A stretch of DNA of 64,000 bases, taken from NCBI GenBank assembly GCA_963772155.1, contig CAVYVX010000016.1, forward strand, positions 8,469 to 72,468, in the 5' to 3' direction. Each line of letters starts with the position of its first letter. The first letter of the stretch is position 1. The notes under the pieces are model-generated. The model had not been told where the DNA came from and ran no database searches. It saw nothing but the letters and a program-made list of their open reading frames with translations. Below, in pieces: positions 22,156-57,409 of this stretch. The translations under genes and the position numbers were made by a program. Source of the DNA: an uncultured Acidobacteriaceae bacterium. Lineage in GTDB: Bacteria; Acidobacteriota; Terriglobia; Terriglobales; Acidobacteriaceae.

Positions 22156-22817
22156 TCCGCGCACAAGAGTAGTTTCATACACTTAGACCGCGGCAGATGG
22201 CATCTTTCGCGGCTAATGCCACGCAATTCCGTGTGAACGGCACGGAAACGGCACGGGTACGAACACGCTAATATAAAGCAGCATAGAGCGCAACGGCTCG
22301 CGGAATTGACCGCAAGGCGCGGATGGTATAGGCGCTTATTCCAGGCGGACCTCGCGACCGCACAAGCGGAGCGGTTCATGGCACGGCCTATGGAAATCAG
22401 CCGCGACACGGGAGGCACAAGCGGCGAGCGTGGGCAGGCGAGAGGGAGAACGGGATATTTTTGCGCTAATTTGTGGGGCTAGAGCGGGATTTGTGGTCTG
22501 CCAGTCAAATCGGCTCCCGGCCACTAAACTTGACGGGATTCTGCCAATTGCCAGTTACTCAACCGAGCCTTATTCCCATCCGGCTTTTCCCGCGCTCGTG
22601 ACCTCACATCCTATTATGATATTTCTCCTTGACGATAGTGATTCTTTGGCCTAGCGTGGCCGTGTCGACAGGAAACGAGTTTCCACCTTGGTTTCGCCGA
22701 GCACGCCGGAGCACCCTTTTGCACTGGGCCTCAACCGTCGCGCCCCCTCCCAGGCACCGTTTCCCAGTTCAAAAGGGCGATGTCGAATTCAATTCCATAT
22801 TGGTTAAGGGAAGAGTT

Positions 22818-28367: not shown

Positions 28368-28443
<76 letters not shown>

Positions 28444-28842: not shown

Positions 28843-29241
28843 TCACGGCCCACCTTGCAAGAGAACAACCGGCTGACTGGATTTCGAATAGAAATGGCAA
28901 TCGAAACAATCAGGATGCAGGTTCACGGCGTTGTGGCACTTGTCGCAGAACCGGGTCTTGTCCTTGTGGCACTGGCTGCAACTATTCAAGGTGACCTCGT
29001 TTCGGATCCCATCCCGCACCGCCTTGTCCCTGAGTTCGTAGAGAAGGACCTTGTGGTTCTGTCGCATCCAGCCGATGTCTCGGACACAGCGCTCGGAGGG
29101 GGAAGACGAAACCTCCAGGAACGGTTTTTGGGGAAATATGGAGAGCCATGCGAAACGCCCCGCGCTGTACGCGAATGGGGACAGAATGATGACACCTGCG
29201 AGGGCTGGAAAAAGCCATGCCGGAGGTCTATTCGGCTTCAT
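28843..29241 (-). CDS. membrane-anchored triheme cytochrome c, DsrJ-like
   Basis: ATG at 29239-29241 lies 5 nt after GGAGG. N-terminal anchor AWLFPALAGVIILSPF. Three CxxCH motifs (CSQCH, CDKCH, CFDCH) in the last 45 aa. Extra Cys in SERCVRD. Overlaps the qmoC stop by 14 nt. Confidence 0.6.
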   Translation of the reverse strand: MKPNRPPAWLFPALAGVIILSPFAYSAGRFAWLSIFPQKPFLEVSSSPSERCVRDIGWMRQNHKVLLYELRDKAVRDGIRNEVTLNSCSQCHKDKTRFCDKCHNAVNLHPDCFDCHFYSKSSQPVVLLQGGP

Positions 29242-30430
29242 GAAGACCTCCCAGCGGCTGCCGGCCAGTATGCTCTGCATACACCATCGCAGTGGCGCGG
29301 TAGATCATGTGGGCGAACTTGGAGTAGGGCAGCAGCACCAGCAGCGCGAACACAGTTGCGAGGTGGATGACGTACATCGCATAGCGGAGCGGGTCCACGC
29401 GCGCGTAGTGGAGAACCTCGCATCCGAATCCCGTAAGCACCGCAGCCGCCGCTAAGCCAAGAAACGTCCAATCGAACCAGGTTCCCTTACGGCCCGTGCC
29501 AGGCATTCGGTCGCGAACCATTCTGTCGCGGATCATGAGGGCGCACCCGATCAGGAGGGCGACACCCGCCAAATTGGCGAGGATCTTCCAGGGGCTCCAA
29601 AAGTTGAAGGGGTAAGCGAAACCATTCCCGAGCAGCGGGTTGAATCGAGCGGTCAGTACCCAGAGGTCCACGACGAGCAAGCCCAGAAAGCCAAAAAGAA
29701 CGAGCCGGTGGGAATTCATCCGCGACCGTTCAGCCGTGCACAGATCAAAGTCCTCATGCAGGATGATCCTGCGCAACGCCGATCGAACGCTCGCCATAAG
29801 CGATTGCGTTCGGCCCGTGCGTCCGGCCGCGCGGTCGCACGCCTTCAGGTCGCGCCAGAAGCGCATCACGCCCCAAGCCATTGCCACCGCATCCAGGAGC
29901 GCGAATGGCGCGAAAAATCCGATCAGGAGCCACTGCGGCAGTTGGCTCCAGTACGAAATGACGATGTGATTCGGGGTGGACGAAGCGGCGAAATACTTTT
30001 CCAATGGCGCGCGTATCCACACCATCAAACCCAGCAGTATGCACGGAATAAGCAGCAGGAGCGGCAGAGAACCAGGCCGGTTCACCCAATTGCCCAGCCA
30101 GCGCGGCACGCTGTAATGGACAATGGCTTCCCTCCGAATCGCCGCCATTACATCCCCTGGCCGCGCACCACGCGGGCAACGCAAGGAGCAGTCGTTGCAC
30201 TGATAGCAAAGCCAGACGTCTGGATCCGCGAGCAGCCGGTCTTTCAGGCCCCACTGCGCCCAAATCATTTCTTTTCGCGGAAAAGGCTTCTGGGCGCCGG
30301 AGAGTTCGCAAACCACCGAGCACATGGCGCATTGGAAACACTTCTTGAGGTCTTCGCCTCCGCTCGCCATGAGGCGATTGCGGAACTCTCTATCCGGCAG
30401 TATGCAAGCGGGAGTGGGCGTCGTCGTCAT
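29228..30430 (-). CDS. qmoC: quinone-interacting membrane-bound oxidoreductase subunit C
   Basis: HdrC-like CFQCAMCSVVCE and CYQCNDCSLRCP, followed by a multi-helix NarI/HdrE-like membrane domain. Position after qmoB. Confidence 0.85.
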   Translation of the reverse strand: MTTTPTPACILPDREFRNRLMASGGEDLKKCFQCAMCSVVCELSGAQKPFPRKEMIWAQWGLKDRLLADPDVWLCYQCNDCSLRCPRGARPGDVMAAIRREAIVHYSVPRWLGNWVNRPGSLPLLLLIPCILLGLMVWIRAPLEKYFAASSTPNHIVISYWSQLPQWLLIGFFAPFALLDAVAMAWGVMRFWRDLKACDRAAGRTGRTQSLMASVRSALRRIILHEDFDLCTAERSRMNSHRLVLFGFLGLLVVDLWVLTARFNPLLGNGFAYPFNFWSPWKILANLAGVALLIGCALMIRDRMVRDRMPGTGRKGTWFDWTFLGLAAAAVLTGFGCEVLHYARVDPLRYAMYVIHLATVFALLVLLPYSKFAHMIYRATAMVYAEHTGRQPLGGLHEAE

Positions 30431-30436
30431 CTTTTG

Positions 30437-32716
30437 TCAGCCCTTGAATGGGTTGAGACCCACGGCATCGATCTGCGCGGCAAACTCGTCGATGAGCGCC
30501 GGCAGCCGGTGGTAATCGGAAAGGGCGATTTCCTCGATGCGTACCCGCTGCTCCTCCAGAGCGAGTTGAAGAAGTTTCTGGCGTATGTTCTCACTGCGCG
30601 TACCCATCAACTCGCTGCCTCGTATGAAGTGGCACTGGTAGTCGTCGCCCGACTTGCATCCCAGCAGCAGGATGCCGTCGAATCCGTGCGCCAGCGCGTC
30701 GGCAATCCAGATCACATTGACCGCTCCCAAACACCGCACTGGAATCACGCGCACAAAAGGACTATAGCGAAGACGAGCGATGCCGGCGGCCTCCAGTGCG
30801 GGCAATGCGTCGTTTTCGCACGCCAGAATTAAGAGCCGCGGCTTCTCCTCGAATGCGTCGGGAATGTTCACCGCTTTGATCATCGAGGAGACGATGTCGA
30901 TCGAATAATCGCCAAATGAAATGATGCGCTCCGGGCAAGCGCCGAGACAGATGCCGCAGCGGCGGCAGCGCCCCGGATTCGGAAGCGGAGTGCCTTTGTC
31001 GTCCTCGTCGAGGCTGCCAAAGGGACACTCCTCAGTGCAGCGTTGGCACTGCGTGCAGCGCTGCATGTAAAAATCCGGGAAGGACAGATCGCCCCATCGC
31101 GGATGCAGGGTGACTCCCCGCGCGGTCAGCTCCACACATTGGATCGCCTTGAGCACCGCTCCCTCGGCGTCCGCGAGGCAGCCCTCTATATCGTTGGGCG
31201 CGCGCATACAGCCCGCCGCATAGATACCCGTCCGCCGCGTCTCGTAAGGGAAACAGATGAAGTGCGAATCGGGAAATCCGCCAGGCAACATCGGAAGGTC
31301 GGGACCCTGCCGATAGGTCAAGCGGAGCAGGTCCGTGCCCTCGTGCTGCCCCTGGTCCGCCACAAGCTGGCGTGCCCCGTCCAGTTGGGGCCCTGGTTGC
31401 CCCTTGTCAATGATGGCCCTGGCAATGATGGCCTTGGCATCGCGGACCTTCCGAATCGCTTCGCCATCGGCGGCAACCGGCACCATTCCCGTCGCCAGCA
31501 CCACGAGATCGGCCTCAACCTGGATTGAGGGTCCAAGCAGAGTGTTCTCGACGTTCACTTGCAGCCCCCGCGCGCTGCCGGCCTCAGCCGTAGTAACCGA
31601 GATCACATCCCCTTTCATCATGGATATTCCGGGGTCTTCTTGAGCGCGGCGATAGAAATCCTCGGACTGCCCCGGCGTGCGGATGTCTTTGTAGAAAATG
31701 TAGGCTTCAGCTTCCGGATCCAGCTCACGGGCCCACAGCGCCTGTTTCAGAGATACCCGACAACATACCGCGGAGCAGTAGGGAAGATGGGCTGCATCGC
31801 GCGATCCGGCACACTGCACGAATGCAATTCGCCGGGCTGGCCTGCCGTCGGATGGACGGCAAATCTGGCCCGTGGCCGCCAGACGTTCCATCTCGACATT
31901 GGTGATCACGTCGGGACTCCGGCCATAGCCAAGATGACCCAAGCGCGAGGCGTCATACGGCTTCCACCCGGTGGCCTGAACGATAGCTCCGGCTTGGGTA
32001 TGGACCGTCGAACCGTTGATAACCAACTCGACATCGAACTGACCGGGCTGGCCGCTGATGCTCTTGATCGCGGCAGATCGGTGAATCTGGATGCGGGGGT
32101 CTTTCTCCAACTGGAGAATCCAGTCGTTGAGATCGATGGCCTCCAGATCCCGGTACGGCGCGCTCTTGGGGAACTGTCGTTTGAAGGAGCGCAGCCATCC
32201 CCCGAGTTCGACCTCTTTCTCAACCAGCACGACCCGATAGCCTGCGCGGCTGGCCTCTCTGGCGGCGACCATCCCGCTGGGCCCACCGCCAACAACAAGG
32301 ATGGTACGGTCGGCGGCGATTTTGGCCGGTTCCCGAATCTCGGCCTTGAGCGCGCGCGCGATTCCCATGCGCAGGTTGTCCTCGGCAAGCATCTGCGTGT
32401 CTTCGTTGTGGGGTTCGTGGCTCCAAACCACCAACTCGCGCAAGTTCACCCTTTCCACGAAGCAAGAATCGAAGGAAAAAGTCTGGGAGTGAAAACGCCC
32501 TGAACAACCCGCAATGACCACCGATGCAAAACCGGACTGGATTCGCTCTTTGATCTGCGCCACTCCCTCATCGCCACAAAGAAACGAATGAGAGCGGCAA
32601 AGGCCCACGCAGCGCTCTTCAGCGGCAACTTTCTCGATGGCCGCCATGTCGAGCGAAGATCCGATGTCGCATCCGCCACAGATGAAGACCGCGACGTTTT
32701 TTTTCTCGTCAGCCAC
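30437..32716 (-). CDS. qmoB: quinone-interacting membrane-bound oxidoreductase subunit B (HdrA-like)
   Basis: MADEKKNVAVFICGGCDIG. FAD motif ILVVGGGPSGM. Ferredoxin motifs CTQCQRCTEECP and CRRCGICLGACP. MvhD-like C-terminus. Confidence 0.85.
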   Translation of the reverse strand: MADEKKNVAVFICGGCDIGSSLDMAAIEKVAAEERCVGLCRSHSFLCGDEGVAQIKERIQSGFASVVIAGCSGRFHSQTFSFDSCFVERVNLRELVVWSHEPHNEDTQMLAEDNLRMGIARALKAEIREPAKIAADRTILVVGGGPSGMVAAREASRAGYRVVLVEKEVELGGWLRSFKRQFPKSAPYRDLEAIDLNDWILQLEKDPRIQIHRSAAIKSISGQPGQFDVELVINGSTVHTQAGAIVQATGWKPYDASRLGHLGYGRSPDVITNVEMERLAATGQICRPSDGRPARRIAFVQCAGSRDAAHLPYCSAVCCRVSLKQALWARELDPEAEAYIFYKDIRTPGQSEDFYRRAQEDPGISMMKGDVISVTTAEAGSARGLQVNVENTLLGPSIQVEADLVVLATGMVPVAADGEAIRKVRDAKAIIARAIIDKGQPGPQLDGARQLVADQGQHEGTDLLRLTYRQGPDLPMLPGGFPDSHFICFPYETRRTGIYAAGCMRAPNDIEGCLADAEGAVLKAIQCVELTARGVTLHPRWGDLSFPDFYMQRCTQCQRCTEECPFGSLDEDDKGTPLPNPGRCRRCGICLGACPERIISFGDYSIDIVSSMIKAVNIPDAFEEKPRLLILACENDALPALEAAGIARLRYSPFVRVIPVRCLGAVNVIWIADALAHGFDGILLLGCKSGDDYQCHFIRGSELMGTRSENIRQKLLQLALEEQRVRIEEIALSDYHRLPALIDEFAAQIDAVGLNPFKG

Positions 32717-33995
32717 GATGAGGACTCACGCAATACTGGAGAGCTTTGAGCGCGGCGCTCGACGCATCGCGCACACAGGATGCGACGTCCATCGGACGCC
32801 GGGCACATCCCGCCGCAAAATGACCGGGCAGCGGCTGCGTACCCGACAAAAAACCATGGGGATCGCGGCTCAGCGCGCCCGACGGCAAAGCCGGATCTTT
32901 CCCAAGCGCCGGGACCATGCCCGCCGCCAGCACCACCAGACTTACTTTTTGGCGAATGCGGCTTTCGGCCAGCACGTCCTCAGCCTCGACCACCAAGTCG
33001 CCCGACGCTCCTTCCTCGGTTACCTTGGCCACTTTGCCTTTGATGAGATGAAGCTTGTCGTCCTTTTGGGATTCGGCAAGAAACAGCTCTTGCCTGCCCG
33101 GGGAGCGGAGGTCGATGTAGTAGACATAAATGTGGGCGTCCGGATATTGCGCCCGCACATACCTGGCTTGCTTGAGCGACGCCATGCAACAGACGCTGGA
33201 GCAGTGTTTGAGGTGGTTGTCGTCGCGCGACCCGGCGCACTGCACGAAGGCCACGCTTTCGATCTCCTTGCCATCGGAAGGACGGACGATCCGGCCTTTT
33301 GTAGGTCCAGATGGCGCCGCGAGTCGTTCCATCTGTACGTTGGAGACCATGTTGGCGTGGGCACCCAACCCCTCGACCACGCTCGCATCGAAGGGGTTCC
33401 ATCCCGTGGCCCATATTAGAGCCTGGACCTCAAACTCAAGGCGGAGCGCGGCCATCCGCAGGTTGATAGCATCGTAGGGGCAAGCCGCCACGCACTTGCC
33501 GCACTGCTCACCGACGCAGGTGGCGGGATCGATCGTGTATCGAAAGGGCCAGGCTAGGTCGCTGGGAAGGTATATGGCGCGGGTCGCTCCCATGCCGTAG
33601 TTGAATGCGTCGGAGCGCGATTCCGGACAGACCGCGACGCAGTCTCCGCAGGCCGTGCACCGTTCATTCACGAATCGTGGCTGCTGCTCGACCGTCACCC
33701 GATGGCAGCCGTCTTCGGTCCGCACCTCGGTCCGCACCTCTGCCACTTCCGACAAGGTAAGGCATCGGATGCGCGCGCTGCTGCGAATTCGCCGGAGGTT
33801 GATTTCGAGGCCGCACAACGGTGGGCAGAGTTTGGGAAAGTACTGATGCATCTGCGCCACGCGCCCGCCGAGATAAGCGCTGCGCTCGACGAGGATGACG
33901 TCGCACCCGGCCTCCGATGCCTCGATGGCGGCGGTGATGCCCGTGATCCCGCCGCCCACGACCATCACTGTGCCACGGCTGTCGCATCCTCTCAT
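32709..33995 (-). CDS. qmoA: quinone-interacting membrane-bound oxidoreductase subunit A (HdrA-like)
   Basis: VMVVGGGITGITAAIE. CTACGDCVAVCP and CGKCVAACP. An 8-nt overlap with qmoB. Confidence 0.85.
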   Translation of the reverse strand: MRGCDSRGTVMVVGGGITGITAAIEASEAGCDVILVERSAYLGGRVAQMHQYFPKLCPPLCGLEINLRRIRSSARIRCLTLSEVAEVRTEVRTEDGCHRVTVEQQPRFVNERCTACGDCVAVCPESRSDAFNYGMGATRAIYLPSDLAWPFRYTIDPATCVGEQCGKCVAACPYDAINLRMAALRLEFEVQALIWATGWNPFDASVVEGLGAHANMVSNVQMERLAAPSGPTKGRIVRPSDGKEIESVAFVQCAGSRDDNHLKHCSSVCCMASLKQARYVRAQYPDAHIYVYYIDLRSPGRQELFLAESQKDDKLHLIKGKVAKVTEEGASGDLVVEAEDVLAESRIRQKVSLVVLAAGMVPALGKDPALPSGALSRDPHGFLSGTQPLPGHFAAGCARRPMDVASCVRDASSAALKALQYCVSPHRG

Positions 33996-34090
33996 GGATT
34001 ACGTTCCCTTCATGGGGAGGGATCGAGCGCGTTGCGCTGGCTGCCCACTGCACGGACGATTGGATGAATCCGAAGCCGAAGCCGAATCCT

Positions 34091-36007
34091 TCATGGCGCG
34101 CTTTTCTCAGGCCGCTTGCCGACAATGTACTTCACCGGCCGCTTCATCATCTTCCACTGGCCCGTCGTTCGATCGAAGATGCAATTGCAGAAAGCCAGCC
34201 AGTCCTGGTTGTCGAGGGACGGCTTATCGGTGCGGAAATAGTATCCAGGCCACCGTGTCTCCTCGCGGAAGTACATGGACTGCACGTGGGCTTCGGCCTG
34301 GTGCAGGCGATGAACGCTCTCCCAGCAACGCATCAACTCGTGCGAGTTTTCGGCGGCCAGAAGCGCGGAGTCCGTCCTCAGAAATGCCAGAAGCTCCATG
34401 CCCTTTTCCAGGAGCTTGCCGCTGGTCTTGAACTGGCTCGACACGCCACCCGCATACTCGTCCATGATCTTCTGCAGGCGGTACATGAACTGTTTGGGAC
34501 GAAGATAGGCGGGGTTGACATCGGGGTCCGTGGTATTGGCTTGATTGGCCTGAAACACATCGAGGGGCTTGAGTATCTCGGACTTTAGAGTCTCGATCAA
34601 TGCGAGGTCAACCTGCGGGGCTGTGTTGTGGTCAGCGATGTAGGAAATGGCTCCTTTGGCCGCAATGCGCCCCTCGGTGAACGATCCCGAGGAGAACTTG
34701 TGACTCGATGCCCCGGACGCGTCGCCGGCGGCGAAGAGGCCAGCGACAGTGGTCATGTTGGGGTAACCCCAGCAGTACTCCGGCCTGGTCGCATCGTTCT
34801 GTAGGTCCGCGGGGCCGGAAACCCAGGCGCCGGAAGCGCCGGAGTGCGAACCGATGAAATAGGGCTCGCACGCCATGATCTCGGATGGTTTGACCTCGGG
34901 TTCGACATTGGTGGCGGCCCAGAGGATCGCTTGTGAGATGGTCATGTCGAGGAAGTCTTCCCACGCCTCCGACTCGAGTTCCTTGAGCTTCTTCTTGGCC
35001 GTTTTCTCGTCCGGCGACTCCTTTGCTATGCGCTGGATCGCGTCCGCCGTCTGCATGTAGATCGGCCCCTTGCCCTCCATCACGTCGAGCATCATGAGCC
35101 AGTTGCGCAGGTTCGCGGGCACGGGTTTGACGTGGCCGTAGGGTGCCCATTTGTCCAACTCGGCGGCGTTTTCGACCATGTAATCCTTGCCCGCGGCGTT
35201 GGTGGCGATGGCTTTGAAGAGCAGGAACCACGCACCCACCGGGCCGTAAGCGTCCTTGAAGCGCACCGGTATGAACCGGACTTCCTGGCAGGTCATCTCG
35301 GCCCCGGCGTAGATGGTGAAGAACGCGCTCGCTCCCGAGTTGAACGGCGGATACCAGGAGCGGCCGAACCCCTCTCCCGTGGAACGGGGCTTGAAGATAT
35401 GCACGGCGCCACCCATGGCCACCAGTGTGGCCTTGGCCTCGAACACGTACACGGTGTTCTCACGAGTGCTGAATCCGATTGCGCCCACGCACCGGTCGCC
35501 ATCCATCAACGGATGGGTCAGGAATACCCTCTCGAAGTACTGCCCTCCCGCTTCGGCCAGCGCGTTCTTGGCCGCTTCCGCCACGATGACCTTGTAGGAC
35601 TCGCCGTTGATCATCAACTGCCAGCGCCCCTCGTGCACGTACTTGCCATCCTTGTCCTTCCATATGGGAAGGCCCCACTTTTCAAAGAGGTGGACAGTGG
35701 AATCGACGTGGCGTGCGACGTTGGCGACGAGGTCCTCGCGTGTGATCCCCATCAAGTCGTTGCGGACGTAGTCGACATAGTCTTTCACGCTGTTGTTGCC
35801 GCTATTGAGGTCAACGTACATGTTGATGGCCGACAGCCCCATGGCGACGGCGCCGGACCGCTCCATCGCCGCCTTGTCCACCAACGTGACCTTCAGGCCG
35901 TGCTGGCGGGCCCAATAACTGGCTTCGACGGCCGCGCCGCAGGCAGCCATGCCCCCTCCGCAGATGAGTAGGTCCGTTTGCACGACTACGGTCTTGAAAT
36001 CAGCCAT
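34091..36007 (-). CDS. aprA: adenylylsulfate (APS) reductase alpha subunit
   Basis: FAD motif DLLICGGGMAACGAAVEA. Size and position directly after aprB. The ATG at 36005-36007 (MADFKT) lies 9 nt after AGGAG. Confidence 0.9.
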   Translation of the reverse strand: MADFKTVVVQTDLLICGGGMAACGAAVEASYWARQHGLKVTLVDKAAMERSGAVAMGLSAINMYVDLNSGNNSVKDYVDYVRNDLMGITREDLVANVARHVDSTVHLFEKWGLPIWKDKDGKYVHEGRWQLMINGESYKVIVAEAAKNALAEAGGQYFERVFLTHPLMDGDRCVGAIGFSTRENTVYVFEAKATLVAMGGAVHIFKPRSTGEGFGRSWYPPFNSGASAFFTIYAGAEMTCQEVRFIPVRFKDAYGPVGAWFLLFKAIATNAAGKDYMVENAAELDKWAPYGHVKPVPANLRNWLMMLDVMEGKGPIYMQTADAIQRIAKESPDEKTAKKKLKELESEAWEDFLDMTISQAILWAATNVEPEVKPSEIMACEPYFIGSHSGASGAWVSGPADLQNDATRPEYCWGYPNMTTVAGLFAAGDASGASSHKFSSGSFTEGRIAAKGAISYIADHNTAPQVDLALIETLKSEILKPLDVFQANQANTTDPDVNPAYLRPKQFMYRLQKIMDEYAGGVSSQFKTSGKLLEKGMELLAFLRTDSALLAAENSHELMRCWESVHRLHQAEAHVQSMYFREETRWPGYYFRTDKPSLDNQDWLAFCNCIFDRTTGQWKMMKRPVKYIVGKRPEKSAP

Positions 36008-36046
36008 GTTCATGTTCTCCTTAGGACTTTCCGAATCCTGAAACAC

Positions 36047-36514
36047 CTACAGTGTGGGAACCTTGTCTAGTTTGACCCGTCCAACTTCCGTGTTCAAACC
36101 CGCGGGCTCACACATCAATGTTGGACTCTTGAGATCGGCGTCGGCGGTCGGGTATTGATCGAAGGGCTTGGCTTTGCCCTCCGCAACGCCTCGTCGAATG
36201 GGGAAATTGAAACGCTTGGGCCGGATGTCCTGGTTGCGGAATTGCACGGTCCACAGGATGTCCTCGCTGCTTCGCATCGCGGTCACGTTCGCGCCCAGGG
36301 GAATGAAATCGGCATACCCGCGGACCTCGATGGCCTGCGTGGGACAGATCTTTACGCAGTTGTAACATTCCCAGCACATCGAGGGATCGCGGTTGTAGGC
36401 CTTCATGATCTGCGAGTTCAGCACCATGAGGTCGTTGGGGCAGATATACTGGCAGGCGGTCTTGTCGAGCGCCTTGCATCCGTCACATTTGTTCGCGATA
36501 ACAAAACTGGGCAT
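36047..36514 (-). CDS. aprB: adenylylsulfate (APS) reductase beta subunit
   Basis: MPSFVIANKCDGCKALDKTACQYICPNDLM...CWECYNCVKICP plus the characteristic C-terminal tail. Confidence 0.9.
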   Translation of the reverse strand: MPSFVIANKCDGCKALDKTACQYICPNDLMVLNSQIMKAYNRDPSMCWECYNCVKICPTQAIEVRGYADFIPLGANVTAMRSSEDILWTVQFRNQDIRPKRFNFPIRRGVAEGKAKPFDQYPTADADLKSPTLMCEPAGLNTEVGRVKLDKVPTL

Positions 36515-37080
36515 TTTGCCTCCGGGGTTCAGAAGGGTCGCTAGGGTAATGTGTGATCTCCAAATCGTAGAGCATCCGTGCGGAAGCTCAATGGGAGAAT
36601 TGCAACGCCGAGGGATATCCAGGATCTCCCAATGCCCACCAAGTCACGGACCAACTTGCCGCTAAGGCCGGAACCCAAATTCGAGATATGTTCTTTTCCT
36701 CGACGGAATCCGCTGAGCTTCATTTCTTTCATGGCGGTGATCATAATATATGAAGAAGCTAAACGGGGGTCTGTGAGCCACGTCACGTACCATGTTGCGG
36801 GCAGGCACCGGTGAGCTTCTCTTTGAAATATCCTTTGCCGCCGGGAACTTCGGACTGACCGCAGGTCTGTGCGCGGCATCACTGACAGCCGGCCTTCCCA
36901 AATTGCAGACTCAGGGAGTGTTCATCCGGGCAGGTGTGTGCAAGGGCCGGACTTCCAGTGTGCGGAGCCAGAAGAGGAAGGCCAATCTCTGCGCCGTTTT
37001 TGGGGCCGAGGGCCGCGCAAGGAGTCCATTGCCTTCCCTCTCTGGCGTCGGCCTAAGAACCTGTCCAGAAACTGTTGGGT

Positions 37081-37240
37081 TTTGAAGGGTACGGGCTTCA
37101 GCCCGTACGTACAAGCGCAAAATGACAGCGGGCTTTAGCCCCCGAGGGGCGGCATGGCTCGCGAACCCATTCCCTCAGCGGCTGAAAGCCGCGTCGTTTT
37201 GTAGCCTCAACGGACGGGCTGAAGCCCGTCCCCTTCAAAA
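37081..37240. repeat. composite palindromic element (hairpin-containing inverted arms)
   Basis: Left arm TTTGAAGGGTACGGGCTTCAGCCCGTAC (37081-37108). Right arm GACGGGCTGAAGCCCGTCCCCTTCAAA (37213-37239), 26 of 27 complementary. Two further hairpins lie between them. Confidence 0.65.
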
Positions 37241-37318
37241 CGTAAGTTTTTGGACAGGTTCTAATAACGTGAATGCAGGCTGGAAGATATCCGTATGCTC
37301 GGCTAGGATGACCCCGCT

Positions 37319-39991
37319 ATGGAAACCGTCATAGGGACGGAAATTCGCGATTTCAGGCTGCGCGGCAACTACGTTAATCAGCGCAGCCTCCTGTCCGGGA
37401 TAGACCCGCATTCTCGCAGGATGGAAGACATAGTTCCGGACAGCCCGGAATACTCCCCGGCCGTGGTCGAGTTCGAACTTCACGATGGTCAAACCGGCAG
37501 CATCGTGGTCAGTGAAGTCGATATTCCTCTACTATGCGACGATGATTTTGAAAAAGCGAAAGCGCACCTTGGGCTGCTTCTGAATGCCCGTCAAGGTGAC
37601 GCTGAGGCTGCGAAGAAGCTTGCTTCGCAGGCGCAAGAACAACGCTTGGCAGCGGAGCGAATTCAACCATCCGAAAGCGGTTTTGTCGTTCCCTCAACGA
37701 GCTGTGAGACCCACTCGGAGCAGGACATAAGTCAAAAGGCATTCGTCCTCCTGAAACTAAGCCAACTTGGCTATCCTGTGCCGGACTTCGTCGTACTTAC
37801 GTCCCAGACTTATGCCGAGCGTGCCCAGCGCTTCGAGGAGCACATCGCGGACGCCATCAAGCAACTCGAAATCCTCACCATGCGGAGACTGGGAGACTGC
37901 GAGAGGCCGCTCGTCTTCGCGATTCGCTGCGCCACGCCCCACTATATTCCCGGAATCCTGGACACTTATCTCAACGTCGGCGTGACCGAAAGTACGTTGC
38001 CCAGTTTGGAGAAGATGTACGGCCCGGTGGCCGCGCGCAAGATGTTTCTGAATAACCTCAGAAACCTGTGCCAGGCCCTCTACCATGACAAGCATGTTGC
38101 GATTATCAAGGCCGTCAAGTCCGACCTGCGTCCCGATAAGGTTGAGCGTCTCGTGGAACGGCTGTCGGAGGTCGTCAGGAAAACCGACCGGAGATTAATT
38201 GAGGATGCCTTTTTTCAGGCCACCTTTTTTGCCAGGCAGGCCTACGAGCATTTTGAAAAGAACCTGGAACTCGTGCTCACACTGTGCCGAGGCGCGGAAC
38301 ATTATCCCAGTCTCATTTTGCAGAAAATGATTTGCACGGTCCGGCACGAAAATGCCTATGCCGGAGTCGTCTCCAGCCGCAATACGCAAACGGGTTTGGG
38401 CATAGAACTGCAAACCACCCGCAATATTTTCGGCGAAGAGATGATGACGGGAACAGCCGAGATCCAAACGACCTCTTTCGAGGACCGCGAGGCAATCAAG
38501 GACGCCTTTCCCGCCGTCTATCATTTTGTCCCACGCCTCAGGGACCTGGAGCGGGAGTTTGAGTCCCCTGTAACCATCGAGTTCGCGGTCGAAGCCACGG
38601 AAAGACAGCAATTGTTCGCGCTCCTGCAACTGAATCAGACGGGAATGGCGGGGCGAGCGGCAATTACTTCGGTGGTGGACATGCACAAGTCGGGGACAAT
38701 ATCGCGGCAACGCGTGACCGAGCTCATCCGGCCCTACCACCTCAGGCAGCTAACCAGCGACACCATCGACCAGGACGCTTTCCTTGTGCTTAAGAGCTTC
38801 TGCTCGGGATTCGCGGTTTTGCCCAGATCGGCAGTCTCGGCGCGCGTTTACTTCACGGGTGACCGCGCTTTGAAAGCCAAGATCCGGGGCGAGACGGTAT
38901 GTCTTTGCAAGAAGACGTTTTCGCCCACCGACACTGTGGTGATGCGCGAGATGGATGCAATCATAAGCCTGACCTCGGCCGCGGTGCACGTAGTCACTAT
39001 CTGCCAGAGCTTGGGCGTCCCGGCCCTGCTCAGCCTTGAGAAAAACGGCGCAACCTTGCTGCCTGACGGGCGCCTGGTTAATTCCTTCGGGATGGAAATC
39101 AGGGAGGGGGATTGGATCACGGTTTCCTCCAGGCGAAGAACTCTTTACGAAGGGAAGGCGAAGTTCAAGCCCGCCAGACTCTTGCGCTACATGAGGGGAG
39201 AGCCGGTCGAGCTGGATGAGGAAGAGCGGAAAGTCTTTGCCGCTATGGCCTATTCATACCGCTACTACAAGCAGTTGACCCGGGGCCTCGAGGTCGATCA
39301 GATCTCCACCCTCAGCGAAGTCGTCAGGCTGGTTGACTTCGAGCTGCGCGGCGAATCGGAAGAAGCCAGGCAACTGGTCAACGGCTGGTTCGACGAACGC
39401 GAAGCGTTGTACATGGAAGAGGTCCTGAAGAGCGACATCGGCGACCACCTCGGGCAAAGCAACGTTTTCGAGATGCTCACCTTGGACCGGAAGATCAGGT
39501 TCTTCAAGCAGGCCCTGGCCAAGTGCTCTGGTCAACGCATCTCCGGCTACGAGGCGGGCGCTTTCATGCTGGGCCGCTTCTTGTGCTTGCGCTATCCCGC
39601 CGCTTTCTGGAAGTGCTTTACCCCATCCGAGATCGGGCTGCTCGTGAATGAGTGGGTCCTCTTCGAGAAATACATGCAGGTCTTGCAGAACGTAGGCGAG
39701 AGAAAAATTCTACTGGCGCGAAAGCAGATCCTCAAGCGTGGGCTCGAACAGCTTTCGCTTAACCCCGGCAACTTGCAACCACTCATCACGCTTAAACTGA
39801 GCGGCGTCAAGCTGGAGGAAGCGAAAGAGTCTTTGCCCGAATGGAGCGATCCCCAGTCCAAGCGGGTGCTCGAACTTCTGCAACAGCCGTACCGCGTTTT
39901 TTACGATTTCAACGCGGCATGGTCCGTCAGCCAACTGGAGAAGATCTGCCGCGAAGAAGGCCTCCCCTTACCGGGCCCCGATGCCTGCTAG
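37319..39991 (+). CDS. PPDK-like dikinase: ATP-grasp (PPDK_N) plus phosphohistidine swivel domain, no PEP/pyruvate TIM barrel, novel N- and C-terminal regions
   Basis: [32 protein letters not shown] aligns with PPDK [48 protein letters not shown] aligns with SHAAVVARGMG (His at 38987-38989). No RTEHMF, GSNDLTQ or CGE motifs after residue 618. Confidence 0.7.
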   Translation: [890 protein letters not shown]

Positions 39992-42523
39992 AGTGGCCGG
40001 CCCCGGCGCCGTGGGCCGCGACTTCAAGCCGTATAGATAATCGCGGTCAATGATCGATTCCATCTCCCGCAGCACTTCGGGAAGTTCCTTTCCGTCCCTG
40101 GCGGCAATCAGGCGGCCCAGCGCGAGCGACAGGGAAAGCACCGCATTCATGCCGAGATTCGCCTTTCTCTGCATGATCTGGATCTTCTCCTCCACGCTCG
40201 CGTTGGGAGCGATCTTGCCGCGTTTCATGGCGAGATCCAGTTCCAGCAGCAAAAGCTCGCGGTCGATGTCGACGAGCGTGCCGAGCGCCGAGATCTTCTG
40301 TCCCAGAAAACGGGGGGCGAGCACTTCGGTCACGTTGGCCACCGCGTTGAGGCACCCTTTCCCGTTGTAACGCTTTGCCCTCATCCAGAGGTCGCCCAGT
40401 TCGCGATTTTTCCTGGTGACGTTCTCGGCCTTCACGTTGGCGGCAAAGCGGTAGGTCTTTTCTTTCTCCTTGAAGACGAAATAGTCCGGGAATTTCCGCG
40501 TGAGCGGATTGGCCTCGATAATGCTGTCGACCAAGTGGATGGCCTCATCCGTCCCCGCCGAGGTGCCCAGGGGCGTGGCCGCGGAGAACTTCATCCCGTT
40601 GTCGAGCGTCACGACCACTCCCACGGTTGGGATGCCCGCGTTCGTTGGCTCCTCGTGAGCGGAAATGTCGGCGATCATGAGATCGGGATCGAGCTTCCGC
40701 GTGATCTTGATCCCCTTCTTCGCCATTTCCATCAATTCGACTATTCTTCCGTACTTGACCAGCCTTTCCGTGTTGGCCCCGCCTCCACATTTCAGGCCGA
40801 GCGCGCCCACCGCGAAACTGATGTCGGCTTCCATTACTTCGTTGGGAGATTTGGAGCGGTGGGATACCACCAAAGCCAGCCCCAACTGCTTCGCCATGCG
40901 AGTGGCCAGCAGGGTCTCACTCAGCGTGCCGATCTGATTGGCTTTAATCAGGGCAGTATTGATGAGCCCTTGCTCGGCGCACCTTTGGATCGTGGTGTCC
41001 TTCGTCGTCACCAAATCGTCCCCGATGATGAGGATCTCCTGGTCGAGGGCCTTCATCAGCTTCTTCCATCCTTCGTAGTCGTCCTCGGCGAAGGGGTCTT
41101 CCAACGAGACGATGGGATATTTCTTTACCCAACTAATGTATAGGTCGACCATTTCGTCCGTGCTCAGGACCTTGGGGTCCTCAGCTCGCCAGAAGAGGTA
41201 CTGGCCGATCGACTCCTTCTCGCCGGTCTTCTCCCGGTAAGCACTGCTGAGTTCACTGGCGGCCGGATCAAGCGCGATGCAAACATCCTGATCGGGGACA
41301 AAGCCACATTCCTCGATGGCCTGCACGGCCACCCTTAATGACCTCTCTTCGGGGAGTAAATCGCCCTTCTCCTTGGCATAGGAGGCGACGATTCCTCCTT
41401 CCAGGCCTACGCCCACAAAATTGAGCCCTTCCGTATCCTGAATTATCTGGATTGCCCGGCTTTGCAGAAGATTGGTGACTCGCTGCGCCTCAATGTAGTC
41501 TTTGGCGGTGAGGGGAAGGAACATCAACTCCTGGAAGCTCAGGTTGCCGCCCATCTCCTCGGTGTGACGCCCGCCCATGATGCAGTTTCTGAACTCCCAT
41601 GGGGCAAACACAATCTTTCCGTCCGCCAGTTCCAGCTCCTGGAGCCGGTGCAGCCTGAGCTTGCGCCGCAGCTCGGCTGGCTTGACCGAGCGCGCCTCTT
41701 GCGTCTCGCCGACTGGCTCCGTGGCCCGCACTTCCGCCACCCTGGCTGCCGCCTCTCTTTGCCTCTCCTGGAACGCCTTGTATTTCCCTGCGTCCGAGAG
41801 CAGGAAGTCGAAGAGGGCAACCACCCCAATGGTGAACAGGGCCCTTCCCACGTACACCGCTGCCGGCAACGCCGTGTACAGGCCCAGCATGATCAGAACG
41901 ATTCCCGGCAAGAATGTGAACTGACTAAGTATCTTGCTCGCTCTTGGCCCCGCCGCCGACACAGCCAAATTCTGCGTCTTCACCGCCGGGTGGAAGCTCC
42001 CCGCCTCCTTATGTACTCCCGGGAAAGTTCCGTACGGGATTTTCACGAACATCTCGAGATACCAGAGCCACCTGCCAAGCGGCCCTTGCTTCAGTTTTTC
42101 CTCCGCCGGCGCCGCCAGCTCCGGTCTCAGATTGTTGGTCTTGACCGCCGTCAGATAGTGCCCCATCTCGTGGATGGCAATATTGCAATGCCATGCCATA
42201 TACCACATCGCAGAGGAGATCACGACTTCAATGCTGAGAAACATCTGCCGCATGACGTCGAATTTCGATGCCACGTGGAGAGAAATGCTTAGTAAGGAGG
42301 TCAGGAAGGCGGCGTGGAAGGAAACCAGCTTGTGGTTGGCGATGATCCAGCCACGATCCAGGCGCGCAGTGTCGCTCGCCTCACGGGTCCACGCGAAAAT
42401 ACGCTCGGGGAGTCCGCGCAACGCCCGAACAATCCCAGCCGGGAGCTGTCTCCGGCGGCTGTTCTGATGTGGATGAGCGGATTGAACGACGGGGTCTTTC
42501 GACGGCCCGGAGTAATTCGGCAT
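39968..42523 (-). CDS. membrane HExxH (M50-like) domain fused to a circularly permuted enolase (C-terminal barrel first, N-terminal domain last)
   Basis: ATG at 42521-42523 lies 5 nt after GGAGA. The track start at 42649 is inside a MITE terminus. HEMGH at 42158-42172. Barrel motifs FQELMF, GLEGG, ALDPAASE, YPIVSLEDP, IIGDDL, LIKANQIGT, SHRS and LKCGG come before the N-domain motifs GIPTVGVVV, PLGTSAGTDEA, RYNGKGCLNAV and ANLGMNAVLSLSLA. Confidence 0.75.
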   Translation of the reverse strand: MPNYSGPSKDPVVQSAHPHQNSRRRQLPAGIVRALRGLPERIFAWTREASDTARLDRGWIIANHKLVSFHAAFLTSLLSISLHVASKFDVMRQMFLSIEVVISSAMWYMAWHCNIAIHEMGHYLTAVKTNNLRPELAAPAEEKLKQGPLGRWLWYLEMFVKIPYGTFPGVHKEAGSFHPAVKTQNLAVSAAGPRASKILSQFTFLPGIVLIMLGLYTALPAAVYVGRALFTIGVVALFDFLLSDAGKYKAFQERQREAAARVAEVRATEPVGETQEARSVKPAELRRKLRLHRLQELELADGKIVFAPWEFRNCIMGGRHTEEMGGNLSFQELMFLPLTAKDYIEAQRVTNLLQSRAIQIIQDTEGLNFVGVGLEGGIVASYAKEKGDLLPEERSLRVAVQAIEECGFVPDQDVCIALDPAASELSSAYREKTGEKESIGQYLFWRAEDPKVLSTDEMVDLYISWVKKYPIVSLEDPFAEDDYEGWKKLMKALDQEILIIGDDLVTTKDTTIQRCAEQGLINTALIKANQIGTLSETLLATRMAKQLGLALVVSHRSKSPNEVMEADISFAVGALGLKCGGGANTERLVKYGRIVELMEMAKKGIKITRKLDPDLMIADISAHEEPTNAGIPTVGVVVTLDNGMKFSAATPLGTSAGTDEAIHLVDSIIEANPLTRKFPDYFVFKEKEKTYRFAANVKAENVTRKNRELGDLWMRAKRYNGKGCLNAVANVTEVLAPRFLGQKISALGTLVDIDRELLLLELDLAMKRGKIAPNASVEEKIQIMQRKANLGMNAVLSLSLALGRLIAARDGKELPEVLREMESIIDRDYLYGLKSRPTAPGPATLAGIGAR

Positions 42524-42639
42524 GGCGTTCTCCAGTGACTGGGCGACAGCGCTGCGATTCGCCTGCAGTCCGCAAACTCGCTGCTCTGATTCGAGGACCA
42601 TTCCCAAATCGGCTTGGGATCGGTGTGCATCCCCTAGAA

Positions 42640-42765
42640 CTGGTTTCATAAATTAGGTTTTGGGCAGGGCACGACTTCAGCCGTGCCGCTCAGGGCCGCA
42701 ATTGATGTGGGCTTTAGCCCCTGAGGGCCTGGCTCCCCGTTCCGAAAAAACGTTTATGAAACCAG
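42640..42765. mobile_element. MITE-like element, same family as 4571-4748 (opposite orientation)
   Basis: 13-bp perfect termini CTGGTTTCATAAA (42640-42652) and TTTATGAAACCAG (42753-42765). The interior is homologous to the reverse complement of 4571-4748. Confidence 0.7.
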
Positions 42766-43005: not shown

Positions 43006-45522
43006 CTACTCCATTTTCGCGTACTTCTCTCGCGCTTCCTGCAGCATCGAGAGCACCGACTGTTTCTCCGTTTCGGTGTTCCACGAAGTATTACTCCGCA
43101 CTCCGGAAATCAGCCGGTCAATCCACGCGATGAAGTAAGCTGCGTCTGCCGCGCCGCGCACGGGAGCGCCAGCCACGTTTACATACACCGGACTGGTCGT
43201 CGCATAAGGGTATATGTCGAGAATCGGATACTCCGCTTTGTCGCTGAAAGCGCGCAGAACGCACCACCCGCTCGCCTCAAGCGGGATCGAGCCCTCAACG
43301 TGCGCCGAGCTGCGGCCGCTGTCCATCGCCAACTCCCGCGCCACCTTTCCGTTACAGACGACTTGGAGATGGTCCACCGGAACCATCGAAACCAGGTCCG
43401 CCGAAAACCGCACTTCTTGTCCCTTTTCCAGCCGCACTTCCCCGCCAATCGCCTGCCCTCCCAGCGAGAACCTCAGCAACGGCCCATTCGTCGCAAACGT
43501 CCGGCCCGCCTTGATCGCCCCGAGCCAAGGCCCGATCCTTAGCTGCCCGGAAGGCACTTCGGCATAGACGCGGTTCAATCCCACCGGCCCGCGCACCGAC
43601 GCGTAGTTGCCCATGAAATCCGTACCCGCGGCCGCGGGCAGCCGGAAACCGCAATTCAGCAGCTTATACCAGACCTCGGCCGTCGACTTATGATCGGAAA
43701 AACCGACTATCTCCATGTAATCAACCTTACCCAGCGCCACATCCGCGGGTAACTCGTCGGTAAGTGAAGCGTCCTTCACCGGATCGGGGAAACTGTCAAA
43801 AGGATGCACGTATCCCACCAGCGCGCCCTGTTCATGCGCCATATCCGCGACATTCGCATTTGCCGGATAAAGGCTGGCCGCCGCCGTATTGGGATAGGAC
43901 GCATAGCCGGGAATAATGAAGTTACGCGTCAGATTAAGTAACCCCAGATGTCCCCAATAACTCGTGTGAAACTCCTGTCCGTACAGCAGCAGATGGTCCG
44001 CGGTCGAGGCCGGGTCGAGTTGTGGCGAGAAGTACGTCATGTCGGGAACGCGCTGTTCCTTATTCACCACCAAATCTTCCACAATCGCCACATTTTCAGC
44101 CGCTGCCTGCTCCACCAGGTGCGCCGGAATATTCCGATATGTTCCCGCGTAGTTCATGTGCGTATGAATATCGCCGCCCACCCAAGCCGAGGCTGCGTCC
44201 ACGGCGATAGACAGCCCCACCATCCGCACCGTAAGCCGCGTGGTGTTATTGGCCTTCACCTCCACCTTGCGCCGTTCAAAATGATTTTCGAATCCGCGCA
44301 TCACTTCCACTTCGACATTGCCAACCGGCGCCGCGATCTCCGACGCACCCGAGGTGTCGAAGTAGTGCGCTTCAAACGGCCGCTCCGCGCGGTCAAAGCT
44401 GTCGTCGGCGTGCATCCATGCGTTGCCGGGAGCATAGGCCAGTCCGTCCGCGGCGGTCACGAAAACCCTCGCCGCTGCTGGGTTTCCAATAGCATCCACG
44501 ACACGCAGTGAAATTCGCCCCATCGGTTTCAGATATTTTCGTTCGCCCGCGACCACCTCCGTTTGCTCTCCGCCCGGTATCTTCTGTATCCACAGGGCGG
44601 TATTTCCATCGCGGTTGGAGATGAACGCGATCTTCGATCCATCCGGCGACCACCGGGGATTAGTGTTGTCAAAAGCGCCATAAGAAATGGGGAACGCATC
44701 TCCTCCCGCCGCCGGCATCAGCCATAGTTGGTGCCAGCTCTGGCCCAGATATGATGCATACACCATGCGCTTGCCGTCGGGCGAAAAGTCGGGACGAGCC
44801 TTCCAGTTCGTCTCCTCATCGTGGATCTCATGCGCCTCGGCGCCCGGTTCCACCTTGATCTTCCAGAAGCCGCCGGTGCCGTGAATGTGCCCCCGGTTCG
44901 ATATGAAGAGAATTGCCGAGCCATCTCGCGTCCACACCGGACTGATCTCGTGGTCCACCTTGCTGTAGTAATAGCGAGGCAGCGAGCTGACATTTTCAGG
45001 AGTAAGTTGCCACACGCCGCTGAGTAACCCGTCTGCGAATTGGCCGACAAAGATATGAAAGTGTCCCTTATAGGACGTCGACACGAACGCCAGGCGTTTT
45101 CCATCCGGCGAGAATCGCGGCTCCACATTCACCGCGCCTCCGGATGTCATCTGCCGCGTCCGCCCATCTCGCAAATCCAGCGACCACAATTCGATGGCGT
45201 CGCGATCGTAGCGCGCAAAAACCACCCATCGTCCATCGGGCGACCAGTCCGGCTGATAGTCATAGCCCGGTCCGGCGGTAAGCTGCTCCGCATTCGCGCT
45301 GCGCAGTTCCTGCCGCCACAGCGAGCCCGCCATCGAATACACCAGGCTGTGCGAATCGGGAGACCAGGCTGCCGCGCTCGGCCCCGTCGTCAACTGCGGC
45401 AAATACATTTCCCTGTAGTAATACGGGTGCGGAAGATCGATCTGCTTAAGCACCGGTTCGCGCTGCGCGAAACAAGAAACACAAGTAAGAAGAAATAGAC
45501 AAGCCAGACGGAACTTTAACAA
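43006..45522 (-). CDS. secreted TolB-like PD40 beta-propeller fused to a CehA/McbA (PHP-type) metallohydrolase domain
   Basis: Repeated WSPDG/FSPDGK PD40 motifs. GGDIHTHMNYAG metal motif. TTG start at 45520-45522 lies 4 nt after GGAGG and gives the signal peptide LLKFRLACLFLLTCVSCFAQ. Confidence 0.65.
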   Translation of the reverse strand: MLKFRLACLFLLTCVSCFAQREPVLKQIDLPHPYYYREMYLPQLTTGPSAAAWSPDSHSLVYSMAGSLWRQELRSANAEQLTAGPGYDYQPDWSPDGRWVVFARYDRDAIELWSLDLRDGRTRQMTSGGAVNVEPRFSPDGKRLAFVSTSYKGHFHIFVGQFADGLLSGVWQLTPENVSSLPRYYYSKVDHEISPVWTRDGSAILFISNRGHIHGTGGFWKIKVEPGAEAHEIHDEETNWKARPDFSPDGKRMVYASYLGQSWHQLWLMPAAGGDAFPISYGAFDNTNPRWSPDGSKIAFISNRDGNTALWIQKIPGGEQTEVVAGERKYLKPMGRISLRVVDAIGNPAAARVFVTAADGLAYAPGNAWMHADDSFDRAERPFEAHYFDTSGASEIAAPVGNVEVEVMRGFENHFERRKVEVKANNTTRLTVRMVGLSIAVDAASAWVGGDIHTHMNYAGTYRNIPAHLVEQAAAENVAIVEDLVVNKEQRVPDMTYFSPQLDPASTADHLLLYGQEFHTSYWGHLGLLNLTRNFIIPGYASYPNTAAASLYPANANVADMAHEQGALVGYVHPFDSFPDPVKDASLTDELPADVALGKVDYMEIVGFSDHKSTAEVWYKLLNCGFRLPAAAGTDFMGNYASVRGPVGLNRVYAEVPSGQLRIGPWLGAIKAGRTFATNGPLLRFSLGGQAIGGEVRLEKGQEVRFSADLVSMVPVDHLQVVCNGKVARELAMDSGRSSAHVEGSIPLEASGWCVLRAFSDKAEYPILDIYPYATTSPVYVNVAGAPVRGAADAAYFIAWIDRLISGVRSNTSWNTETEKQSVLSMLQEAREKYAKME

Positions 45523-45908
45523 GAGCCCTCCACCATGGGTGTGGCGCAATCGCCGCCCGCGTCCCTTAGTCGTATGTATCACGAATCTCCTGCTTGACTT
45601 CAAAAGCGGCAACCAGTGTACACCCATCTCGCCTGCTCGCGTCACCGTGAAACCAATTTTCATACGGATCGCCCCCGTCGGTACGAGGTCCCGTACCAGC
45701 GCAGCCTGGATTACGCCATTTGTGGCCTACTTTTGCAACACCTGTCCTTACCCCACAATCCGCTGTTGACGATTTCACCGCCGGCCTGACCACCATCCAT
45801 CTATCCCGCCGGTACCGGCAGCAACGCGATCCACCCAGCTCGACTCCCGCTCGCTTCTCGCGCCACTTCCGCTGGCCTCACGATTTGAGTTAAGGTTGTA
45901 GACCGGAC

Positions 45909-53251: not shown

Positions 53252-53279
53252 AGCGAACCTGCGTTCGTACCCCGGTCAG

Positions 53280-53492
53280 CTACTCAATATACCCAAGTCC
53301 CTGGAGCCGCTTCTTAATGATTTCCTTCGAGGTTTTGCCACCTTCGCCAGGAGGCAGCACCTTGTCGACTTCCTTTTCGAGAGCATGCAGCACAAATTCG
53401 TCCACTGACGCGTAACCGCACGCTTCCGAACATTGCTTCACTTTGTCGAGCAATTCGCCTTCGATCTTTACCTTGTGAGAGCCGAACATCAA
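53280..53492 (-). CDS. small ribbon-helix-helix-like protein
   Basis: KVKIEGELLDKVKQCSEACGYASVDEFVLHALEKEV fits a strand-helix-helix pattern. Confidence 0.4.
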   Translation of the reverse strand: MMFGSHKVKIEGELLDKVKQCSEACGYASVDEFVLHALEKEVDKVLPPGEGGKTSKEIIKKRLQGLGYIE

Positions 53493-53516
53493 TCACCTCA
53501 ATCGCGGGCCAAACGA

Positions 53517-55511: not shown

Positions 55512-55534
55512 GGACTCAATCTTCTGCAGCGCTC

Positions 55535-57313: not shown

Positions 57314-57409
57314 CAAAAGTCTTCGGCTCCATAGTCAAACGGCGGAATCTGTCTCATCGAGCCGCCGCCGTTTGTGAGTTGATGCCATCCGTTGTGCTAG
57401 TCTGAGCAC

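Follow-up and report, generated by a model that had tools for sequence, protein, structure and literature searches.

Does a gene pair for a dikinase and an enolase-like protein serve sulfate activation when it lies next to an operon for the dissimilatory reductase of adenosine 5′-phosphosulfate (APS)? This question is raised by a 64,000-nucleotide stretch of DNA from an uncultured Acidobacteriaceae bacterium (GenBank assembly GCA_963772155.1, contig CAVYVX010000016.1, positions 8,469 to 72,468), here called the window and analysed at its full length. In it, the operon aprBA-qmoABC is transcribed divergently from the gene of a protein related to pyruvate phosphate dikinase (PPDK), hereafter DIK, which in turn converges on the gene of a membrane-anchored, circularly permuted enolase, hereafter ENOL. 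The sequence-only reading of the window had tied this pair to the operon, proposing that it recycles the adenosine monophosphate (AMP) and pyrophosphate (PPi) of sulfate activation. We conclude that the locus probably consists of two independent units adjacent by chance, an apr-qmo operon and a membrane-bound dikinase-enolase system; the explanation that best accounts for the data as a whole, and which we hold to be reasonably probable, gives the pair no dedicated role in sulfate activation. The gene content, geometry and coordinates reported earlier for aprBA-qmoABC, the dikinase, the permuted enolase and the 24-nt overlap were all confirmed, and no sat, dsrAB or inorganic pyrophosphatase gene was found among the 29 larger open reading frames (ORFs) of the window scanned against Pfam or NCBIfam.

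The association between pair and operon was compared in related genomes. Scanning the ENOL family with one genome per GTDB species gave 44 loci with up to 10 kb of flank per side, and these were searched by tblastn with all window proteins as queries. AprA, AprB and QmoABC were found in none of the 44, one locus (L036) giving only weak Hdr-like matches at 30-38% identity, and apr or qmo lay within 10 kb of the pair in 0 of 39 Terriglobia genome loci; nine further Terriglobia-type metagenome loci with the pair stood outside this search. In the reverse comparison, the closest apr operons lay in four distinct contexts, and none of these contained DIK or ENOL within 10 kb. The AprA proteins of these operons, one of which comes from an NCBI Terriglobales metagenome-assembled genome (MAG), are 88-93% identical to that of the window, and the gene order is aprBA-qmoABC followed by a DsrJ-like gene wherever the contig reaches far enough. 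Among the best 120 AprA matches, relatives of at least 84% identity form a handful of 90% clusters, below which lies a cross-phylum plateau at 81-83%. Because AprA thus has few such clusters while ENOL and DIK have at least 120 close clusters each, it is suggestive that most pair-bearing relatives lack the apr lineage of the window; no contig was recognised as common to the ENOL and DIK match lists and that of the best 120 AprA matches.

Since apr beside the pair is a single occurrence, repeated in no related locus, the adjacency is not beyond chance expectation and is a one-off, in line with the earlier caveat that it might be coincidental. The proposal that the pair is tied to aprBA-qmoABC and recycles the AMP and PPi of sulfate activation found no locus-level comparative support. 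A shortcut from sulfate activation to phosphoenolpyruvate (PEP) would have been an appealing explanation for the disposal of AMP and PPi in sulfate reducers, and the neighborhood gives no evidence for it. A near-identical Logan contig extends only 105 nt upstream of DIK, so that the aprB-DIK junction is known from one assembly, and an exact look-up of the window DIK (P0121) found no record. The tetranucleotide composition test gave no sign of recent transfer or chimerism in the region, the correlation with the rest of the window being 0.94 for apr-qmo, 0.79 for DIK and 0.84 for ENOL.

What is conserved around these genes is the pair itself. DIK stands convergent beside ENOL in 39 of the 41 Acidobacteria loci among the 44 searched by tblastn, the two exceptions without DIK being a second ENOL copy and a 2.4-kb contig. 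By ORF clustering, DIK/ENOL is the only conserved synteny in all 39 informative Terriglobia genomes, everything around it being reshuffled. In the window the two 3′ ends overlap by 24 nt (39968..39991), and the two stops lie -24, -4 or up to about +100 nt apart in most of 38 loci. As they converge, the two genes do not form an operon and are not co-transcribed. In L010 (12586-16794, an Acidobacteriota MAG), DIK is split into pieces of 269 and 606 aa by about 1.6 kb with three small ORFs, likely an insertion that disrupts the gene.

ENOL (893 aa, 39968..42649, reverse strand) carries Enolase_C (residues 350-641) ahead of Enolase_N (659-709 and 826-851). Its enolase barrel (residues about 341-641, 40727..41629, reverse strand) matched PF00113 with E 2.4e-57 and enolases in the PDB with E 1e-50, and is followed by the capping domain, which corresponds to the N-terminal domain of other enolases (residues about 659-860, 40070..40675, reverse strand; PF03952 at 659-709) and contains an insertion of about 115 aa. 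In the PDB alignment, residues 663-708 and 826-851 of ENOL pair with enolase residues 9-54 and 101-126. By sequence, then, the domain order is a genuine circular permutation, as had been claimed. Identity to solved enolases is about 35% in the barrel and capping domains, and the catalytic and metal residues S697 (the equivalent of the metal-loop Ser), H362, E374, E417, D461, E517, D544, K569, H597 and K620 are all at least 98% conserved in an alignment of 159 sequences; their counterparts in yeast enolase we take to be S39, H159, E168, E211, D246, E295, D320, K345, H373 and K396. ENOL thus has every catalytic and metal ligand of enolase (EC 4.2.1.11) and looks, from its residues, like a catalytically intact enzyme. 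Judged by domain order and by score (TIGR01060, 244 bits against a cut-off of 300), it is nevertheless not a canonical enolase, from which it differs in being barrel-first, in the capping insertion, in its four-helix membrane domain and in co-existing with a canonical enolase. Such an enolase, of 431 aa, immediately follows the permuted ENOL in L085 (9992-13991), and because the two adjoin there, ENOL is a specialised paralogue and not the housekeeping enolase. In L087 (8566-12579), an ORF of 436 aa, known by its size only, occupies the equivalent position after ENOL, and in L088 (856-6468) a protein of 1870 aa joins ENOL to a second enolase barrel.

The N-terminal region of ENOL contains about four hydrophobic helices by hydropathy. 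This membrane domain (residues about 97-300, 41750..42361, reverse strand) bears an M50-type HExxH motif (H160, E161, H164) and the sequence LFDFLLSDAG (D281, D286, G288). The first motif, H160-E161-M-G-H164, sits where a hydrophobic segment ends, as in peptidase M50, and is found family-wide. Both the HExxH and the Asp motifs are at least 98% conserved in the 159 sequences, and HExxH and LDFxxADxG-type motifs are kept in about 25 ENOL clusters at 35-50% identity, which suggests a working M50-type metal site. The Pfam family PF02163 reached 20 bits in the ENOL of L038 against a cut-off of 27; the window protein gave no match, and homologues have weak precomputed matches. ENOL is similar to M50 peptidases such as RseP and SpoIVFB in having an HExxH that closes a hydrophobic helix and, in a later helix, a conserved Asp motif as candidate for the third zinc ligand (an Asp of an LDG-type motif), but it differs from them in a much smaller core (about four helices) with sub-cut-off Pfam scores, which leaves it a putative protease, and in a cytoplasmic appendage that is an enolase rather than PDZ or CBS.

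DIK (890 aa, 37319..39991, forward strand), divergent from aprB, resembles PPDK only at residues ~140-620, which align to residues 24-514 of PDB chain 1dik with E 1e-21. A family-specific N-terminal domain (residues 1-135, 37319..37723, forward strand) has no Pfam or PDB match and is modeled as alpha/beta with a pLDDT of about 60-88; its residues 45-135 can still be aligned with the distant DIK of L136. It is followed by an ATP-grasp, PPDK_N-like nucleotide-binding domain (residues about 136-500, 37724..38818, forward strand; aligned to 1dik 24-~430) and a phospho-histidine swivel domain (residues about 501-620, 38819..39178, forward strand; aligned to 1dik ~430-514). In the place of the PEP/pyruvate barrel stands an all-alpha C-terminal domain (residues 621-890, 39179..39991, forward strand). 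Past residue ~620, no match to the PEP-utilizers_C barrel was obtained in Pfam, NCBIfam or PDB and the model is all-helical, which bears out the earlier description of a dikinase without this barrel. This domain of 270 aa gave no significant Foldseek fold match and no Pfam, NCBIfam or PDB sequence match, is highly conserved within the family, and is partly common to the L136 protein.

With the DIK model, Foldseek matched PPDK structures at E 6e-20 and also rifampin phosphotransferase and HpeI. The equivalent of the catalytic His is H557 (codon 38987-38989, forward strand), aligned on H455 of 1dik, which is invariant in an alignment of 51 sequences, at least 98% conserved in one of 155, and retained in the L136 DIK; the motif around it is divergent and of low confidence in the model. 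K140, R203, G212, E421 and Q437 are invariant in the family and correspond to K22, R92, G101, E323 and Q335 of PPDK, where we take the roles of the site residues K22, R92, D321, E323, Q335 and R337 to be those of the C. symbiosum enzyme. By its lack of the barrel, two substituted site residues and a TIGR01828 score of 116 bits against a cut-off of 843, DIK is not a PPDK, but it lies within the dikinase superfamily. With PPDK (EC 2.7.9.1) and PEP synthase it has in common the order of ATP-grasp and swivelling His domains and the catalytic His, and it differs from them in lacking PEP-utilizers_C and in its new N-terminal (135 aa) and helical C-terminal (270 aa) domains. Like rifampicin phosphotransferase and glucan-water dikinase (GWD), it joins an ATP-grasp and His~P core to a non-PEP acceptor module or separate subunit; phenylphosphate synthase is another such acceptor-swapped or split dikinase. 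What sets DIK apart from these is that its constant partner is a separate or fused protein of the enolase fold.

The partnership extends beyond the Terriglobia. Clustered at 50% identity, the ENOL module, that is, the membrane domain with the permuted enolase, falls into at least 30 groups, many of them in proteins of 1.4-6 kaa, and it was found in Acidobacteria, Planctomycetota, Omnitrophota, Thermodesulfobacteriota and many wetland and sediment metagenomes. Single ORFs of ~1,750-2,400 aa, encoded in L042 (a Thermodesulfobacteriota MAG), in seven metagenome contigs, and by P0252 and P0266, combine ENOL, an unannotated region X of ~700 aa, PPDK_N and a canonical GGSTSH His domain, with no barrel at the end. 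The dikinase is N-terminal to ENOL in the fusion P0260, and in P0280 (3697 aa) ENOL is fused to a complete PPDK that includes PEP-utilizers_C. Operons complement these fusions: in L041 (Omnitrophota), a GWD-like dikinase is encoded after ENOL with the same orientation, and in L136 a full-length DIK homologue, a histidine-phosphatase-superfamily protein and ENOL are encoded in one direction. This DIK homologue is 28% identical to that of the window over residues 45-757 and keeps the His, the T/N substitutions discussed below and, in part, the N- and C-terminal domains. The dikinases joined to ENOL in these various ways usually have no acceptor barrel. Searches with sub-HMMs found no homologues of the DIK N-, His- or C-domains in the giant ENOL fusions, and hhalign gave no homology between region X and the DIK N- or C-domains. 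From the Terriglobia synteny together with these fusions and operons, DIK and ENOL are shown to be under joint selection and constitute a conserved, previously undescribed two-protein module. The earlier suggestion that the dikinase and the enolase-like protein work together is strongly supported in the sense of functional coupling. No description of a permuted or membrane enolase, or of an enolase-dikinase module, was found in the literature searched, and a search for M50-enolase and for PPDK in sulfate reduction gave nothing relevant beyond known acidobacterial apr operons.

Two features of these distant proteins may be recorded separately. In L041 (8798-18114), ENOL (1414 aa) and the GWD-like dikinase (1675 aa) have a paralogous N-terminal domain of ~330 aa (47% identity), before which stands a hydrophobic N-terminus resembling a signal peptide; ~107 aa at the C-terminal side are also common to both, which hints at a common localisation or assembly. 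The giant multi-domain proteins P0255 (6041 aa), P0286 (4136 aa) and P0280, each with an ENOL module, contain several thousand further residues without Pfam annotation.

As to mechanism, comparison of domains and residues indicates that the module probably acts on 2-phosphoglycerate (2-PG), PEP and pyruvate. DIK would load or unload a phosphoryl group on His557 with an adenine nucleotide, and would exchange this group with a C3 phospho-acid on which ENOL works (along the path 2-PG, PEP, pyruvate), ENOL being envisaged as an M50-type (site-2-protease-like) membrane domain that bears a cytoplasmic permuted enolase. In lower glycolysis or gluconeogenesis, the pair would in this way provide an enolase-plus-dikinase step that is tethered to the membrane and distinct from the housekeeping enolase. 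A C3 phospho-acid as the partner of DIK fits the fusion of ENOL to a complete PPDK, and it may also fit the histidine-phosphatase-family gene of the L136 operon, as this family includes phosphoglycerate mutases. If DIK and ENOL do exchange phosphate, the mechanistic repertoires of dikinases and enolases would both be extended, and a step so far unrecognised would belong to the central carbon metabolism that abundant soil anaerobes use.

Several observations weigh against this metabolic reading or against the independence of the two units. A purely metabolic model assigns no function to the conserved M50-type motif. In DIK, D321 of PPDK is replaced by T419 (at least 90% conserved) and R337 by N439 (invariant), and R337 is presumably important for the nucleotide/pyrophosphoryl partial reaction; because of these two replacements, canonical dikinase chemistry is not assured. 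The AlphaFold model of ENOL, built with 48 close homologues aligned, has a mean pLDDT of 53, with the barrel below 50, and is unfit for inspection of the active site or of the M50 fold; with this poor model, Foldseek gave weak enolase matches only and none for the membrane domain. The convergent orientation provides no co-transcription. Outside the Terriglobia, a minority of ENOL loci with enough flank show a dikinase, and none was found within 10 kb of ENOL in L084, L103 or L114. The comparison of the pair with apr and qmo was made at the level of loci with flanks of at most 10 kb, and some pair-bearing relatives carry the name Candidatus Sulfotelmatobacter, that of a genus that has genes of dissimilatory sulfur metabolism (PMC6018796).

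How do the alternatives fare against the same evidence? Because the metabolic model leaves the M50-type site unexplained, a regulatory role is kept alive, which we regard as possible, if unlikely: ENOL would be a site-2-type intramembrane metalloprotease whose enolase domain senses 2-PG or PEP and which DIK modulates by phosphoryl transfer, so that the metabolic state gates the cleavage of a membrane substrate, for example an anti-sigma factor. The persistence of HExxH and LDFxxADxG across about 25 divergent clusters would fit such a function, as would the weak Peptidase_M50 matches, and M50 proteases commonly bear cytoplasmic ligand-binding domains such as CBS or PDZ. Individual loci also place a sigma-54 activator downstream (L038) or a PAS/GAF histidine kinase upstream (L129), but ORF clustering of the loci revealed no conserved anti-sigma or sigma gene nearby. 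Conservation of all enolase catalytic and metal residues points to turnover over mere binding, and the fusion to a full PPDK fits a metabolic pathway, as the operon with a histidine-phosphatase-family gene may too. A bolder variant of the metabolic reading, which we consider quite unlikely, sees in the pair a rewired PPDK-type machine: the ENOL barrel would replace the lost PEP/pyruvate domain, as the sequence-only reading had suggested, and the DIK His would exchange phosphate directly with PEP in the enolase site, giving the net conversion of 2-PG + AMP + PPi or Pi to pyruvate + ATP or its reverse, to which the M50-type site might couple a membrane process. Were it true, the enolase fold would have a new catalytic use, and substrate-level phosphorylation or gluconeogenesis a new route at the membrane.

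It is also quite improbable, in our estimate, that DIK phosphorylates another acceptor (a glycan, a lipid or a small molecule) bound by its all-alpha C-terminal domain, in the manner of rifampicin phosphotransferase or GWD, with ENOL only supplying or consuming PEP or anchoring DIK. That conserved domain does sit at the position of an acceptor domain, and the Foldseek matches to rifampin phosphotransferase and HpeI, the GWD-like partner in L041 and the ~700-aa region X of the fusions are what such a reading would expect. Yet the partner dikinases are of three unrelated architectures that have only the ATP-grasp and His domains in common; X is not homologous to the terminal domains of DIK, the constant element is ENOL rather than an acceptor domain, and one fusion contains a complete PPDK. 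The idea with which we began, a PPDK-like device for recycling AMP, PPi and PEP that is dedicated to sulfate activation and functionally adjacent to aprBA-qmoABC, we judge highly improbable. PPDK-type chemistry uses AMP and PPi and would consume both, DIK keeps the His and most nucleotide-site residues, and its gene diverges from aprB across a spacer of 804 bp. Some pair-bearing relatives also belong to a sulfur-metabolising genus (PMC6018796). At the locus level this proposal is nonetheless largely refuted by the lack of apr/qmo within 10 kb in all 39 pair-bearing Acidobacteria genome loci and of the pair in the four contexts of the nearest apr operons. The equivalent of R337 is Asn, and ENOL is also combined with a dikinase in Omnitrophota, a Thermodesulfobacteriota MAG and many taxon-unassigned sediment contigs, with no apr in the loci annotated there.

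The operon beside the pair is itself of a known kind. On the reverse strand, aprB (36047..36514) matched PF12139 APS-reductase_C with E 2.6e-23 as well as Fer4 and ends at 36047, directly upstream of the start of aprA at 36046 (34091..36046), whose product scored 864 bits with TIGR02061 against an equivalog cut-off of 641.75. HdrA-like QmoA (32709..33995; FAD_oxidored and Fer4 domains; 85-90% identity in related operons) and QmoB (30437..32716; FAD/NAD-binding, Fer4 and FlpD domains; 82-90% identity to qmoB of related operons) are encoded directly upstream of qmoC (29228..30430; NF038018, 378.8 bits against an equivalog cut-off of 300), all again on the reverse strand. The last gene (28843..29280, reverse strand) encodes a small DsrJ-like cytochrome c of 145 aa, which NF038038 cytoc_DsrJ matched under its cut-off (64 bits, E 1.3e-17). 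A DsrJ-like gene lies 3′ of qmoC in five of five related apr loci with sufficient contig, at 64-78% identity; the contig of L165 stops within qmoB. The order aprB-aprA-qmoA-qmoB-qmoC is like that of the dissimilatory operon of sulfate-reducing and sulfur-oxidising prokaryotes, from which the clade of the window differs in the extra conserved DsrJ-like gene, and identity to Terriglobales MAG operons is 82-93%. The window therefore contains an ordinary acidobacterial dissimilatory APS reductase operon plus a clade-specific DsrJ-like gene, operons of aprBA-qmoABC having already been described for peatland Acidobacteria (Hausmann et al. 2018, PMC6018796). The divergent spacer between aprB and DIK (36515..37318, 804 bp) contained no sigma-70-like consensus site in a promoter scan. 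Directly downstream of the operon, and part of neither unit, is a tRNA-Lys(CTT) gene (28368..28443, reverse strand; ARAGORN, and Rfam tRNA with 74.6 bits), for which no att-like direct repeat was found up to 38 kb.

The Terriglobales apr operons that have the DsrJ-like gene directly after qmoC include, besides that of the window, those of L080, L082, L163 and L164. In L080 and L163, genes for Fer4_11 (DsrO-like) and NrfD (DsrP-like) proteins come next, an order that suggests a hybrid qmoABC-dsrJOP-like unit; the window has the J-like gene only, then the tRNA, with no DsrO/DsrP-like continuation.

Acido-Lenti-1 RNA together with the protein relatives assigns the window to the Terriglobia (Acidobacteriota); this small RNA lies at 17663-17708 on the reverse strand and scored 50 bits with Rfam RF01687, for which the gathering score is 37. 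Nearby, within a low-GC stretch at ~16-24 kb (GC 0.50-0.55), a weak match to an IS1-type transposase (18970-19872, reverse strand) may be a mobile-element remnant. On the forward strand, positions 22629-28046 encode an ORF of 1805 aa with seven GloVer (Gloeo_Verruco) choice-of-anchor repeats; two tandem copies of 249 nt lie within it at 27500-27997, and it is in this segment that the tetranucleotide correlation with the rest of the window is lowest (r 0.72). At the other end, positions 50325-63709 hold a cluster of paralogous alkaline-phosphatase-superfamily genes, comprising two of the Phosphodiest type (50325-52466 and 53517-55511) and three sulfatase-TPR fusions (55535-57313, 59523-61487 and 62102-63709). 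ARAGORN called a permuted tmRNA at 60873-61378 on the forward strand, inside a sulfatase-TPR gene of the opposite strand; this is probably a false positive, as Rfam gave no tmRNA at its gathering threshold. At 43006-45663 on the reverse strand, a fusion protein of 885 aa is encoded, in which TolB-like PD40 beta-propeller repeats are joined to a metallohydrolase domain of the CehA/McbA family.

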